Shown here piece by piece: positions 53,931 through 60,237 of a stretch of 64,000 nt of DNA. The notes beneath the pieces are model-generated. The model ran no database searches, was not told where the DNA came from, and was given only the letters and a program-made list of their open reading frames with translations. Position 1 is the first letter of the stretch. Each line of letters starts with the position of its first letter. Source of the stretch: a virus. Location of the stretch: the IMG/VR virus record IMGVR_UViG_3300043465_002420. The stretch is one strand, 5' to 3'. Position numbers and translations under genes: made by a program.

Positions 53931-54584
53931 ATGCCAACATACCACTCCCCAATAGAATGGCTAGAAAGATCTACCATTTCTATAAAATCACAAACTTATA
54001 CAAATTTTGATTGTTATGTTGTGAAAGATGGATGTTGTGAATCTTGCACAATAGACACAACAAATAAAACATGTATTGAATGTGAAAACTGTAAATTAAC
54101 AAAAAAGTTTTTTAAAAAAATTGCAAAAAATGACAAAAGATTTAAATTCCATATTTTGCCAATTCATCTAAGTGGTGCTGGTTGGGGTCCTAGAAATTTT
54201 GCAATCATGAACACACATCATAATTATATAGCATATCTTGATGATGATAATTGGTACGAAAAAGATCATATAGAATCACTTTATAAAACAATTACTTCTG
54301 GTGATTATAACTTAGCCTACACTGGTACTAGATTACATGATTCTAATAAAAATATTATAGGAGAAAGAATTCACAATTCTATTCCAAAAGCTGGATATAT
54401 AGATACTTCTGAGATCATGCATACTAGATATCTAATAGATAAACATGGCGGATGGCGTTATGTGAAAAAATGCAATGATTGGGATTTAATATCAAGATGG
54501 ATTCCCGATGTGAAATGGAGTCACACCAACAAGGTAACACTTAATTTCTTTATAAGGGATGGATGCGGAATACACAGGAAATAA
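53931..54584 (+). CDS. Glycosyltransferase family 2
   Basis: WGPRNFA, IAYLDDDN, IDTSEIMH, NDWDL. The expected first strand KILIC lies upstream of the called ATG. Confidence 0.85.
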   Translation: MPTYHSPIEWLERSTISIKSQTYTNFDCYVVKDGCCESCTIDTTNKTCIECENCKLTKKFFKKIAKNDKRFKFHILPIHLSGAGWGPRNFAIMNTHHNYIAYLDDDNWYEKDHIESLYKTITSGDYNLAYTGTRLHDSNKNIIGERIHNSIPKAGYIDTSEIMHTRYLIDKHGGWRYVKKCNDWDLISRWIPDVKWSHTNKVTLNFFIRDGCGIHRK

Positions 54585-55843
54585 AACAGTTCGTCCAGAA
54601 GTGGAAAAACTTCACCGATTCCTCCACGCAAATTCCCTACGAATACAAGCCAATATGCAAAGATTTACTTTTGCACGATGAAGAAATCGTTGTCGAAACA
54701 ATAGACATACTGAAAAGAAACATATCATCTTGGGCAGAAAAAAATTCCGAAGCTTACGCAAACAAAAAAGACCTTACTTTTTTAGGTAAAAATGATCTCA
54801 CAGACAAAGACAAGTGGTATGTAAAATCCTTAGAAAATGAATCCATGCCAATGAAAAGTAGCGGAAGCACCACTGGTGAGGGATTCGAATACTTGCGATG
54901 GGAACCTTTCCTTTATTTCATCGAAGGAGAAAACCACTATGATCTGATTCTGGATGAATATGAAATACCACAGAATCCAGACATCATGTACTTCTTTAAT
55001 TCTTCGTTCGGAAGTGGCTCAAGACACATAAACAATACATCGAAAAGCAAAAACTTTATGGAACATCACGGAACAAAAAGAACCGCAATGGTTCATTATG
55101 CAAACACGAAACTACAAAAAGAAAAAGAAGAAGTGTTTCGGAAATACCTATTCAGATATTTAAATTTAAAAAAAATGGATGTAATTTTTGCCCCAGGCCC
55201 ACAAATAAAAAAAATATGCTCTTATATAAAAAAGGAAAACTATAAAGGTAAACTGTGCAACTTGTTGAGCAATAGCAATGAAAAAATTCTGGATGAAGAT
55301 GCTAAATTCCTTCTCGAAAAAAATTATGTGTCACATATATGCGACCACATGAGGTGTTGGGATGGAGGAGCTTCCTTCTTCACATGTAGAGATAAGAACT
55401 ATCACTTAATGGATAACCTTTCTTGGTGTGTCGAAAATGAGGAAAGGCTCATATCAACCGATTACTTCTCCTTGGCTTGTCCTTTTGTCAAATTCTGGAA
55501 TGGCGACAGGTGCAAGATAGGCGATAAATATCAGAGATGTTCGTGCGGAAGGTTGTACAGAGATTTTAAATTCTTGGAGAATCGACCATTTGCCATAAAA
55601 GGGCATTCGATCAACGAGTACAAAAAGAAGCTCACGGAAACTGGTCTTACAGAGATAAAACAAGTGAATTGCGGAATCGACTTCATAGAAATCGTGTCGA
55701 ACAAAGAAATAGATCCTATCAAAAAAAATGAAGTTGCCGAAATATTTAAGTCTCACAAATTGAAATTCAAAGTTGTTCCAGACCAATTGGCATCGCAAAA
55801 AATTCATAACAGAACTCCATCTGAAAAGGTGGAAACAAAATGA
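54563..55843 (+). CDS. Phenylacetate-CoA ligase / F390 synthetase-like adenylate-forming protein
   Basis: KSSGSTTG P-loop, STDYF...PFVKFWNGD (A7-like), CSCGR, GH hinge. Confidence 0.7.
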   Translation: MRNTQEIKQFVQKWKNFTDSSTQIPYEYKPICKDLLLHDEEIVVETIDILKRNISSWAEKNSEAYANKKDLTFLGKNDLTDKDKWYVKSLENESMPMKSSGSTTGEGFEYLRWEPFLYFIEGENHYDLILDEYEIPQNPDIMYFFNSSFGSGSRHINNTSKSKNFMEHHGTKRTAMVHYANTKLQKEKEEVFRKYLFRYLNLKKMDVIFAPGPQIKKICSYIKKENYKGKLCNLLSNSNEKILDEDAKFLLEKNYVSHICDHMRCWDGGASFFTCRDKNYHLMDNLSWCVENEERLISTDYFSLACPFVKFWNGDRCKIGDKYQRCSCGRLYRDFKFLENRPFAIKGHSINEYKKKLTETGLTEIKQVNCGIDFIEIVSNKEIDPIKKNEVAEIFKSHKLKFKVVPDQLASQKIHNRTPSEKVETK

Positions 55844-58800: not shown

Positions 58801-60204
58801 GTTTGTTGCGGTTTGCCGGGTCAAGAAGTATGTTGTCCTGAAGGTCAAACTTGTGTTGAGAATGCGTGTTACGGATGTACACCTCCTTGTTCCGAAAGTC
58901 AGGATTGTTGCGATGAGGTATGCACAGAAGTTGGAACAGACACAAATTGTTCGGGTTGTGGTGACGCTTGTGGAGAAGGAACAAAATGCTGCGATAAAGT
59001 GTGTACTGCTACTGGAACTGACACAAACTGTTCGGATTGTGGCGATGCTTGTGCCGAAGGTCAGAGTTGTTGTGATGATGTATGCACAGAAATTGGAACC
59101 GACACAAATTGTTCGGGTTGTGGTGATGCTTGCACAGACGGAAAATGTTGTGAGGGAGTGTGCAAAGAAACACAAACCGACAATGAAAATTGTGGCGATT
59201 GCGAAAATGTATGTAATACAGCAGAAGGTGAAAAATGTGTTGCTGGAGTATGTGTTACTTGTGATCCACCTTGTACTGGACTTGATGTATGTTGTGATTT
59301 AACATGCTGCAAAGTTTGTTGCGGTCCAGAAGGTAGTAAGACATGCTGTGCTGAAGGAAAAATCTGTTTAAATGGTCAGTGTAGCGGTTGTGAACCAGAA
59401 TGTACAGAACCTGGACAAACTTGTTGCACCAATCCTAATCAGCCTAATCCTACAGAGGAGGAACCAAGTCCACCAATAGGACAATGTTGCCCTGCTGGAG
59501 TTCTTTGTTGTGCTGGTGGATGCTGCCCTAATGAAAATTTTTACTGTTGTGATAACAAAGTATGTTGCTTCAATGATCGTGCTTGTTGCAATGGAGTTTG
59601 CTGTGCTGAAGGTAAATTCTGCAATAATGGCGTGTGTGCTGATTGTAATCCAACATGCTACTCTGATGAAAAATGTTGTCCTGGAACTACTGGTAGCGGG
59701 GAATGTATTAGGTGGCAATGTGGCGATTGCCCAAATGCATGTACACGATTCCAAACATGCACCAATAATGTTTGTTGCGATGCAGTAACGGAGGGTCCAC
59801 TATCAGGGCAAACTGGTGTAGGTTGCGGAACTGTTTGTTGCGACCCCGGTATCACATGTTGCCGAGACATTTGTTGTTTAGACCCTGACGAAGAATGTTG
59901 CGATGGCTTTTGCGTAAATACCAATTCTATCGACAATAATAATTGCGGAGGTTGTGGCCAGCCATGTGTCGCTCCAGCAACTTGTTGTAATGGTTCGTGT
60001 AGAACAGTTTTTGCAGACACTTCTAGTTGCGGAAGTTGCGGGAATACATGTTCACTTGGAATGCTTTGCTGCCCTGATAACGGTGGCTGCGTTTACCCAT
60101 CGTATTTAAATTGTGGTAGTTGCGGAAATGAATGTGAAGTAGGACAATCATGTTGCCCAGATGAACAAGGCGGTCACACATGCTTGGCTCAAGGTTCATG
60201 TTAA
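55840..60204 (+). CDS. 1454-aa cysteine-rich repeat protein (Stig1-like repeats)
   Basis: About 20 copies of CC.G.C......D..NCG.C...C; no signal peptide; ATGA overlap with the upstream gene. Confidence 0.85.
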   Translation: MIDPKLVKKWDIVFALQEKGCGYFATYEAVVIVPRPCTGGSSAYWTLASPCPDGCTSSPPPQLPTNPPCDPNYPDNGTENDIIGCCEGIVSVECSGTCCKCGGVECLTTETCCDDVCVNLQTDRDHCNSCTTPCNPDQDCCDGECKNIYEDSNNCNGCGNVCPEATPTCCNGDCCTTANCCFVDDILTCIDVTNNHDHCGRCDNPCAAEETCCSGECVNTQTDNEHCGSCPNACPVAFTCCSGVCKELFGDDRLNCGDCGKTCVVGEICKNGVCKDACAANDCEFTWVDPPGCCSRYVCSTENEYAFSSSYTSITDCSVDSPPNIPCDGSPESTGYFYLTWSPEPCCTGSCQSFCLEPTCTWSGPENSTCGEGCACQSFEGQPCACGTLRDDPCIRTVVPPGQWNATATCPQGCNCPGNAPIQNGTNGQVVSYECVNCLAPCEAGEKCCFGTCKNILTDPLNCGDCGNNCGDQILGNKCCNGKCVNILTGDLNCGDCTTVCPFPEVCCNGVCKNRNTDNYNCGSCGYECQTGIGETCCNGICVNENTDRNNCGSCGFTCPNADQCIDGNCVPCVPPCLEAGTACCNNQCIDILSDESNCGGCNIPCAGKCCGGICVLDLNTMFNCGDCGIECPQLINQINLWQCCNGQCKNLKTDPENCGFCGNVCQEPPGDTFTVPKCFLGNCAEPECDCQGYEAGMPPQPGPDDVAFVASCVGNTVSCDGSCYFNAVGGGWVLYEEPGGTGFSGTCGKEPDYTYCVDDKYACVDDKYVCVGDIYYCVKNIEGQDMPTYCIPAASFNAETQALIGSYIGAENCAAGCSGDGSECDPACGNGLTCCDTQCVDTQTDSANCGGCGGGPCAAGEACKDGVCTGCTPPCADGESCCEGGTTCCETCCADACCPTGQSCVDGVCATCEPPCTAGQTCCGGSCCDAGIICCDQTCCAEGEFCENGSCATCNPVCYPDETCCDATCVRWQCGECPNACASAEIVCCGLPGQEVCCPEGQTCVENACYGCTPPCSESQDCCDEVCTEVGTDTNCSGCGDACGEGTKCCDKVCTATGTDTNCSDCGDACAEGQSCCDDVCTEIGTDTNCSGCGDACTDGKCCEGVCKETQTDNENCGDCENVCNTAEGEKCVAGVCVTCDPPCTGLDVCCDLTCCKVCCGPEGSKTCCAEGKICLNGQCSGCEPECTEPGQTCCTNPNQPNPTEEEPSPPIGQCCPAGVLCCAGGCCPNENFYCCDNKVCCFNDRACCNGVCCAEGKFCNNGVCADCNPTCYSDEKCCPGTTGSGECIRWQCGDCPNACTRFQTCTNNVCCDAVTEGPLSGQTGVGCGTVCCDPGITCCRDICCLDPDEECCDGFCVNTNSIDNNNCGGCGQPCVAPATCCNGSCRTVFADTSSCGSCGNTCSLGMLCCPDNGGCVYPSYLNCGSCGNECEVGQSCCPDEQGGHTCLAQGSC

Positions 60205-60237
60205 AAAAACAGGCTTGATTTTCAAGCCTGTTTTTTT
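60203..60237. terminator. Bidirectional rho-independent terminator
   Basis: aaaaaaacaggcttga-ttt-tcaagcctgttttttt between convergent genes. Confidence 0.9.

Follow-up and report, generated by a model that had tools for sequence, protein, structure and literature searches.

A predicted PaaK/CapK-family ligase and tagged cysteine-rich proteins form a widespread gene cassette in huge uncultured freshwater phages

Why would a phage encode, as one tightly coupled gene set, a GT2 glycosyltransferase, an enzyme resembling acyl-adenylate ligases and a 1454-residue protein built largely from cysteine-rich repeats? This question is raised by a locus in the 64,000-nucleotide stretch of DNA analyzed here (the window), which is part of IMG/VR virus record IMGVR_UViG_3300043465_002420. 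Because this linear 165-kb record has a CheckV completeness of only ~34%, it covers just part of the genome, roughly 0.5 Mb in size, of a huge and uncultured lake phage. The GC content of the fragment is ~30%, and among public phage records the nearest comes from an uncultured phage of 595 kb, with 50% identity over DnaE. The cassette consists of three plus-strand open reading frames (ORFs): GT2 (53931-54584, 217 residues), the ligase (54563-55843, 426 residues) and the large protein, here called the cargo (55840-60204, 1454 residues). A preliminary description, made from the sequence alone, had noted overlaps of 22 nucleotides between GT2 and ligase and of 4 nucleotides between ligase and cargo as well as a common terminator, and all of these are present, the terminator being a hairpin at 60203-60237 with a 16-bp stem (dG -20.1, z -7.9). 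With moderate confidence, we read the locus as a ligase-plus-tagged-cargo cassette in a giant form linked to GT2, which would modify or mount a tagged, disulfide-rich, binding-type surface protein. As such, the ligase-plus-tagged-cargo arrangement has a wide distribution among huge uncultured phages from freshwater.

By predicted fold, the 426-residue enzyme is a PaaK/CapK-family adenylate-forming ligase of the ANL superfamily, representing a divergent phage subfamily. An AlphaFold2 (AF2) model generated with 24 homologues reached a predicted local distance difference test (pLDDT) score of 85.5. The top Foldseek matches to this model were all PaaK-family AMP-ligases (prob 1.0, E 1.7e-14 to 1e-11, TM-score ~0.55), with the two-domain adenylate-forming fold present, and its structural neighbors include the amide/ester-forming AjiA1, NatL2 and ClxA. 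The initial assignment as an acyl-adenylate ligase-like enzyme is thus upheld by fold and without help from Pfam: no match was found in Pfam, PHROGs or NCBIfam, and none of 24 ligase family members reached significance with the PF00501 or CapK_C models. Atlas leads for the ligase were feature-based only. Like other members of the PaaK/CapK branch (PaaK1/2, BT_0428, AjiA1, NatL2, ClxA and VpsH), the predicted enzyme combines two domains with a Ser/Thr/Gly-rich P-loop (S-S-G-S-T-T-G-E-G, residues 98-106) and a YxxGD-type motif, located in a Y-W-N-G-D...C-x-C-G-R region that aligns to ClxA/PaaK (profile search, 0.012). In contrast to them, the phage subfamily is not represented by any Pfam or NCBIfam model, carries its own invariant motifs (CDHMRCWDGG and CxCGR) and is paired or fused with tagged proteins. 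The ligase is 90% identical in amino acid sequence to that of locus L003, above the values for the flanking DnaE parts (69-84%), and such high conservation between phage lineages indicates strong constraint on the gene or its recent exchange. Its GC content at third codon positions (GC3) is 0.40 compared with 0.19-0.25 in neighboring genes, and a more distant homologue (L020) shares 34% identity with it.

The ligase family comprises at least 349 clusters, all of them metagenomic, and 33 ligase loci are found in IMG/VR on contigs of up to 511 kb. Neighborhood conservation, which the preliminary description had named as a way of checking its proposal, is evident, with GT2, ligase and cargo co-occurring in the clade of the window and in other huge-phage clades. 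The additional statement that proteins of the cargo type are typical of secreted eukaryotic or myxobacterial proteomes and not of phages is wrong, the family being common in uncultured huge phages. An assembly chimera can likewise be ruled out because independent contigs from other samples share the gene order. Within the clade of the window, the order GT2, ligase, Cys-rich protein is constant, and the Cys-rich protein ranges from 1365 to 2654 residues and is sometimes divided into two ORFs. The GT2-ligase pair is 57-98% identical across relatives and 57-65% identical in other clades, where it is followed by a different large protein, usually with a 4-nucleotide overlap. These other-clade cargo proteins include one that has five Laminin_G_3 domains and precedes a collagen-like gene, DUF285/PKD proteins (8-11% Cys), poly-Ser/Cys-rich giants, short proteins of 180-190 residues and proteins with fn3 parts. 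In 9 of 15 lineages, the stop codon of the ligase overlaps the start codon of the cargo (4-nucleotide ATGA).

Only an N-terminal tag is common to all cargo proteins; neither Ser/Thr tracts nor the repeats are conserved across the whole set. In the window cargo, it reads D-I-V-F-A-L-Q-E-K-G-C (residues 11-21, with Lys19 and Cys21; 55870-55902, plus strand), as identified by alignments, enrichment and the copies found in fused ligases. The tag is ~10 residues long and ends in an invariant Lys, with a Cys following 0-5 residues later. Its variants are [DN]-I-V-F-[AS]-L-x-x-K-x-C and G-P-I-Y-S-x-L-x-x-K-x-C, and the proteins downstream of GT2-ligase pairs show the looser form [DN]-[IV]-[IVL]-F-[SA]-[LM]-x1-2-K, then Cys. 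Where a ligase paralogue has no GT2, small Cys-rich ORFs (59-351 residues) come after it, with up to four tagged ones in tandem. These start with M-x-Y-N-N-x-G-P-I-Y-S-x-L-x-G-K-x-C, following the same logic as the giant-cargo tag, and returned nothing from Pfam, PHROGs or NCBIfam. Across phages, tagged cargo proteins therefore span 59 to 2654 residues. Among unique six-frame ORFs in ligase-bearing loci, the motif occurs within the first 45 residues of 23 of 373 ORFs lying just downstream of a ligase on its strand versus 7 of 3893 elsewhere (odds ratio 36, Fisher 3e-19); the loci are related, which means that the Fisher value is not a true probability, and at least a dozen lineages contribute. 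This pattern suggests a swappable, mostly Cys-rich body carried behind a portable tag.

These results bear directly on the hypothesis first put forward for the locus, namely a virion fiber or coat that is cross-linked by disulfides or metals and glycosylated and acylated by its neighbors. The coupling of the three genes stands. For glycosylation and acylation along the length of the protein there is no indication; the feature that appears coupled to the ligase in comparisons is one short N-terminal tag with an invariant Lys and then a Cys. We consider a fiber or coat modified at many sites by GT2 and ligase unlikely. It would agree with the tight gene coupling, the extracellular character of the domain types and the Ser-rich, lectin- or collagen-associated cargo found elsewhere, fibers often having such features, and the virion fibers of the freshwater phage Pam3 are known to be disulfide-linked (PMC9942802). 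However, it does not account for conservation being restricted to the tag or for cargo as short as 59 residues, the window cargo contains merely 4.7% Ser, and Pfam and PHROG scans of the cassette proteins gave no match to a tail-fiber, capsid or other structural family.

The connection between ligase and cargo is further illustrated by gene fusions. Some ligases of 571-712 residues, 48-51% identical to the window enzyme, carry an in-frame Cys-rich C-terminal extension with 1-3 tag copies, and one of them was confirmed as a single ORF on contig L095. The C-terminal end of fusion P0091 matches residues 25-96 of the window cargo (BLASTP, 51% identity, 2e-9) and the extension of P0088 matches residues 329-395 (BLASTP, 54% identity, 2e-13). 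The ligase-cargo link thus follows from adjacency, translational coupling and gene fusion taken together. Non-repeat modules of the cargo are shared with these ligase extensions, and the Stig1 repeats of the window cargo represent an expansion within an older tagged-cargo family. Cargo genes can also be split, as in L089:8001-13835 and L090, which are two independent runs, and in L091:4777-11153. The split ORFs measure 835 + 1099 residues or, overlapping, 1103 + 1050 residues, and the break corresponds to Met ~789 in the linker region of the window cargo, which in L089/L090 is where the second ORF starts. Taken together, GT2, ligase and cargo are supported as a putative functional unit at the sequence level.

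The GT2 assignment made initially is confirmed by Pfam (PF00535, 48.5 bits against a cut-off of 23.3, E 1.3e-12). The gene (53931-54584, plus strand) encodes a glycosyltransferase of the GT-A type with a DDD motif and a conserved 4-Cys insert. The motif Y-L-D-D-D-N-W, which contains the DxD signature, is invariant in an alignment of 10 homologues, and an NCBIfam TuaG-like match (2.8e-9) lies under its cut-off. By sequence profile, the nearest PDB entries are GalT1, SpsA, TarP/TarS and heparosan/chondroitin synthases. Homologues begin 16 codons upstream of the ATG at 53931, and alignment with them places the ancestral start at 53883-53888 (plus strand), where ATG is followed by TGA. This second codon is TGG in the closest relative (L001:4873). 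The ORF starting at 53931 lacks strand beta-1 of the GT-A fold (K-I-L-I-C missing), and no suppressor tRNA was found in the 165-kb fragment, its sole tRNA being Arg-TCT. The GT2 of the window may therefore be truncated or inactive, may need readthrough, or the TGA may be an assembly error.

A glycan context is indicated by genes near the cassettes of relatives, which include NAD-epimerase or GDP-mannose-dehydratase-like genes, a fusion of the ligase to GT9 and an HldE-like gene. In a 343-kb record (L010:9974-13647), a GT9 heptosyltransferase-like domain is joined to the ligase and an HldE-like kinase/adenylyltransferase comes next, which suggests a heptose-containing product in this lineage. 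VpsH, a PaaK/CapK-like enzyme of Vibrio cholerae, adds glycine to a uronic acid of Vibrio polysaccharide (PMC13463779), showing that the PaaK/CapK branch is able to build amides on glycans. GT2 and ligase could act in a VpsH/CapK-like manner to tailor a glycan or small molecule, such as a host envelope polysaccharide, a nucleotide sugar or a lipid-linked intermediate, with the cargo simply co-expressed and its tag serving assembly or targeting. The VpsH precedent, the epimerase, GT9 and HldE genes and the proximity of the GT2 profile to polysaccharide and teichoic-acid glycosyltransferases all speak for this possibility. Still, we judge it quite improbable, as the in-frame ligase-cargo fusions and the ATGA coupling speak for a direct relationship between enzyme and cargo and tagged ORFs also follow ligases without any GT2.

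The cargo (plus strand) contains 281 Cys among 1454 residues (19.3%), in agreement with the initial visual estimate of roughly one fifth. A Pfam search for Stig1, the repeat type recognized in the preliminary description, gave a match of 135.9 bits against a cut-off of 24.1 (E 6.9e-40) over 13 stretches. The count of about 20 repeats given there proved too low, as our own repeat hidden Markov model (HMM) finds ~33 units of 27-31 residues, with 23 strict CxxCxxxC motifs. The six-Cys units follow the pattern C-x2-C-x3-C-x4-8-C-C-x3-C and are arranged in three blocks between which two non-repeat Cys modules are located. The NCBIfam MXAN_6577-like model (NF041328) scored 58.8 bits, under its cut-off of 100. 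From the N-terminus, the protein consists of a conserved domain identified by BLASTP and alignment (residues 1-100; 55840-56139), block 1 (residues 103-283; 56146-56688, repeat HMM), a non-repeat Cys module homologous by BLASTP to the C-terminal module of fused ligase P0088 (residues 284-434; 56689-57141), block 2 (residues 435-691; 57142-57912), a linker region (residues 692-822; 57913-58305) and block 3 (residues 823-1451; 58306-60192). The unit of block 2 was modeled as a loop plus a beta-hairpin: in an AF2 model of residues 435-700 (pLDDT 66.6, and ~80 over the first 110 residues), each unit forms one beta-hairpin. Foldseek returned no significant neighbor for this model, the best value being E 0.045 among LRP2, TNFR and laminin-EGF-type modules. 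Nucleotide-level duplications are few overall. Both of those pointed out initially exist, one as an 81-nucleotide x3 tandem in block 3 near 58940/59101 (58886-59143), with 82-86% identity between copies 1 and 3, and the other as the 58753/59710 pair (58746/58751-58785 versus 59703/59708-59742, 90-94% identical). The cargo gene has a GC content of 45%, with 0.58 at second codon positions (GC2) and a GC3 of 0.30 versus the 0.19-0.25 of neighboring genes. Horizontal acquisition was considered as the main cause of the 45% GC and rejected, as amino acid composition accounts for most of it.

The cargo has no signal peptide, as first stated, and contains no hydrophobic or transmembrane segment (maximum Kyte-Doolittle(19) 1.2), so that the N-terminal signal peptide expected of secreted Stig1 proteins is missing. 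Its distant Stig1-repeat relatives come from bacteria, where fusions add NHL, PKD, lectin, fibrinogen or peptidase domains to them. Signal-peptide-like N-termini are found in 46 of 63 of them, whereas all nine phage-clade members (9/9) lack one and carry the tag in its place. The Stig1 signature and six-Cys units are shared with Stig1 and MXAN_6577-like proteins of plants, myxobacteria and other bacteria, in which the repeat is a module of large multidomain extracellular proteins. The window protein differs from these in being phage-encoded, in having a ligase-associated tag instead of a signal peptide and in its about 30 units. An extracellular, disulfide-type role is plausible because of the signal-peptide-like N-termini of distant relatives and because cargo in other phages contains lectin, PKD, DUF285, fn3 and poly-Ser/collagen-type parts, and the best fit for the cargo body is an extracellular, disulfide-stabilized stalk or binding array. 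The locus thereby shows a secreted Cys-repeat scaffold of eukaryotic or myxobacterial type that has been adopted by a virus without a signal peptide and then diversified.

This diversification is apparent from evolutionary rates. In comparison with the closest relative, whose flanks are 94-99.8% identical, the cargo has a nonsynonymous rate (dN) of 0.233 and a synonymous rate (dS) of 0.649 (omega 0.36), while eight neighboring genes show a dN of 0.001-0.032 and an omega of 0.01-0.18. Cys columns are kept in 258 of 275 cases (94%), compared with 63% identity at non-Cys positions. The first 100 residues of the cargo are 81% identical to those of a more distant phage and 63% identical to those of the closest one, which indicates mosaic exchange. 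A fixed Cys scaffold with variable loops, whole-repeat insertions and deletions and recombination is a pattern typical of contact surfaces under diversifying pressure. It sits poorly with a cytoplasmic thiol- or metal-buffering protein, that is, a giant metallothionein-like sponge aiding host takeover, which the 19% Cys, the missing export signal and the location among early or replication genes might otherwise bring to mind. Hypervariability with retained Cys and the replacement of the cargo by lectin or PKD proteins in relatives do not fit such a function, and the regular hairpin units, with six Cys each, match a disulfide family of secreted proteins. We regard a sponge as extremely improbable.

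For the preferred reading of a tagged cargo that is modified or mounted, we hypothesize that the ligase would activate a carboxylate with ATP by adenylation and transfer it to the cargo tag. The product would likely be an amide on the tag Lys, possibly formed via a thioester on the neighboring Cys. GT2 would supply or extend a sugar and, given this role and the analogy to VpsH chemistry, the donor may be a uronic-acid-type glycan. The cargo protein would thereby be modified or covalently mounted. Its body would fold fully on oxidation and contact the host or environment, and such contact would explain its hypervariability. It should be noted that we infer which residue is the acceptor, what the donor is, how GT2 contributes and that the location is at the surface or on the virion.

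The proposed activation and transfer logic has precedents among adenylating protein ligases. Biotin and lipoate protein ligases, non-ribosomal peptide synthetase (NRPS) A-domains with their carriers and the Pup ligase all activate a carboxylate with ATP and pass it to one acceptor residue, and the acceptor is sometimes fused behind the enzyme. Their folds or acceptors differ from those of the phage cassette. More tentatively, the cassette may constitute an undescribed phage protein-conjugation system, in which the PaaK-family ligase joins the tag Lys (or the adjacent Cys) to a carboxylate on a glycan or other protein, diversifying disulfide-rich binding modules of 59 to 2654 residues are covalently mounted on the virion or a sugar coat, and GT2 builds the attachment sugar. 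Phages would then have their own equivalent of sortase- or ubiquitin-like tagging. Full-text literature searches returned no paper describing a ligase-tag system, and to our knowledge no PaaK-family enzyme modifies a protein. If the ligase does act on the tag, protein modification would be shown for the first time for an enzyme of the PaaK family, phages would have a new route for gaining swappable surface modules, and the combination of a short portable tag and a single ligase would be testable as a protein-conjugation tool. A freshwater virome survey annotated phage PaaK-like genes as aromatic-degradation auxiliary genes (PMC9554406), and the present locus is a caution against this practice.

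A number of observations weigh against the interpretation as a ligase-plus-tagged-cargo cassette acting on a surface protein. Acceptor and donor are guesses, and the tag could serve as a signal for assembly or targeting instead. In cargo lineages L004 and L092 the tag is found in its loose version only, and the last repeat block of L089/L090 is encoded apart, in an ORF that has no tag. GT2 is possibly inactive here owing to the TGA at ancestral codon 2. The repeat model is moderately confident and has no significant structural neighbor, and a 281-Cys protein would be made in a reducing cytoplasm without an established oxidation route. The neighbors of the cassette are replication genes with no recognizable structural module among them, in a record covering only about a third of the genome. 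Finally, 50,697 phage records gave no match for ligase or cargo, and hence no cultured relative.

Convergent to the cassette and sharing its bidirectional terminator are two overlapping minus-strand genes with conserved thiol motifs. The first encodes a 100-residue membrane protein (60257-60559) with an invariant CHEC motif (L-C-H-E-C) and the second a 139-residue protein (60541-60960) with an invariant NCSC motif (N-C-S-C), both motifs being unchanged in an alignment of eight homologues. The two genes occur together in 51 of 53 IMG/VR loci and could encode a thiol-redox pair. A role as dedicated oxidase for the cargo is weakened by the finding that only ~17 of these 53 loci have a ligase or tagged ORF at a distance of up to 8 kb, and the pair is at most a general accessory. 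A search of the fragment for Erv1/ALR sulfhydryl oxidases gave no match and is uninformative, as control genomes gave none either, and the same applies to a search for the Gp23 capsid protein. Thioredoxin matches in the fragment are weak or interrupted and distant from the locus.

In having a GT2 gene on a phage, beside the gene for a Cys-rich product and close to genes for thiol-motif proteins, the locus is reminiscent of sublancin/glycocin loci. The prophage-encoded sublancin set comprises the GT2 SunS, the Cys-rich SunA and the oxidoreductases BdbA/BdbB. In an analogous scheme of the bacteriocin or RiPP (peptide made on the ribosome and modified after translation) type, the tag would be a leader, the Cys-rich parts would be cores and the giant protein would be a polyprotein cut into many knotted peptides. 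This appears very unlikely despite the tandem arrays of short tagged ORFs, the repeated tags within fused proteins, the presence of GT2, the CxxC membrane protein and CxC protein adjoining the cassette and the trypsin-like proteases near some cassettes. The 1454-residue protein has one tag only, the cassette lacks a transporter, leader peptidase or exporter, cargo often contains large folded binding domains, and the ligase family is not among the known classes of RiPP enzymes. Compared with sublancin/glycocin loci, the window has a giant product and a ligase, is without a transporter, and its 100/139-residue pair is not cassette-specific.

The ligase-plus-tagged-cargo cassette is flanked by hairpins at both ends. 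In addition to the terminator, a 13-bp hairpin at 53853-53882 (plus strand; dG -16.5, z -4.5, 0 of 200 shuffles) separates it from an upstream acidic-repeat gene and is likely a terminator or attenuator at its 5' edge. In the window as well as in all close relatives, the cassette sits in the gap between two parts of dnaE, which in the window are on the minus strand and 9.3 kb apart. The N part (61012-62361) encodes the PHP domain and the first palm segment and stops just ahead of the catalytic P-D-x-D-x-D, and the C part (48960-51701) encodes the rest, its first ~85 residues being a degenerate duplicate of the segment ahead of P-D-x-D-x-D. An intein origin of the split was dropped, as no intein fragment is present at either junction and the halves overlap via the duplicated segment.

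The upstream acidic-repeat gene (52854-53849, plus strand) encodes a 331-residue protein that starts with M-S-F-K-S-F-Q-E-Y-L and has a strongly acidic tail made of 8.7 copies of a 21-nucleotide repeat (D-M-S-D-E-D), the strong 13-bp hairpin lying 3' of the gene. Further away, the phage encodes a thiamine pyrophosphate (TPP) enzyme with all three TPP domains (36111-37658, minus strand). At the edge of the window lies a SpoVR-like gene (63104-64000, minus strand) with a match to an intein-splicing domain. Relatives (loci L089 and L091) carry a PrkA/DUF444 (YeaH-like)/SpoVR set, and in L091 an intein that has a LAGLIDADG domain interrupts the SpoVR-like gene. The set corresponds to a stress- or sporulation-type kinase operon, which is unusual for a phage.

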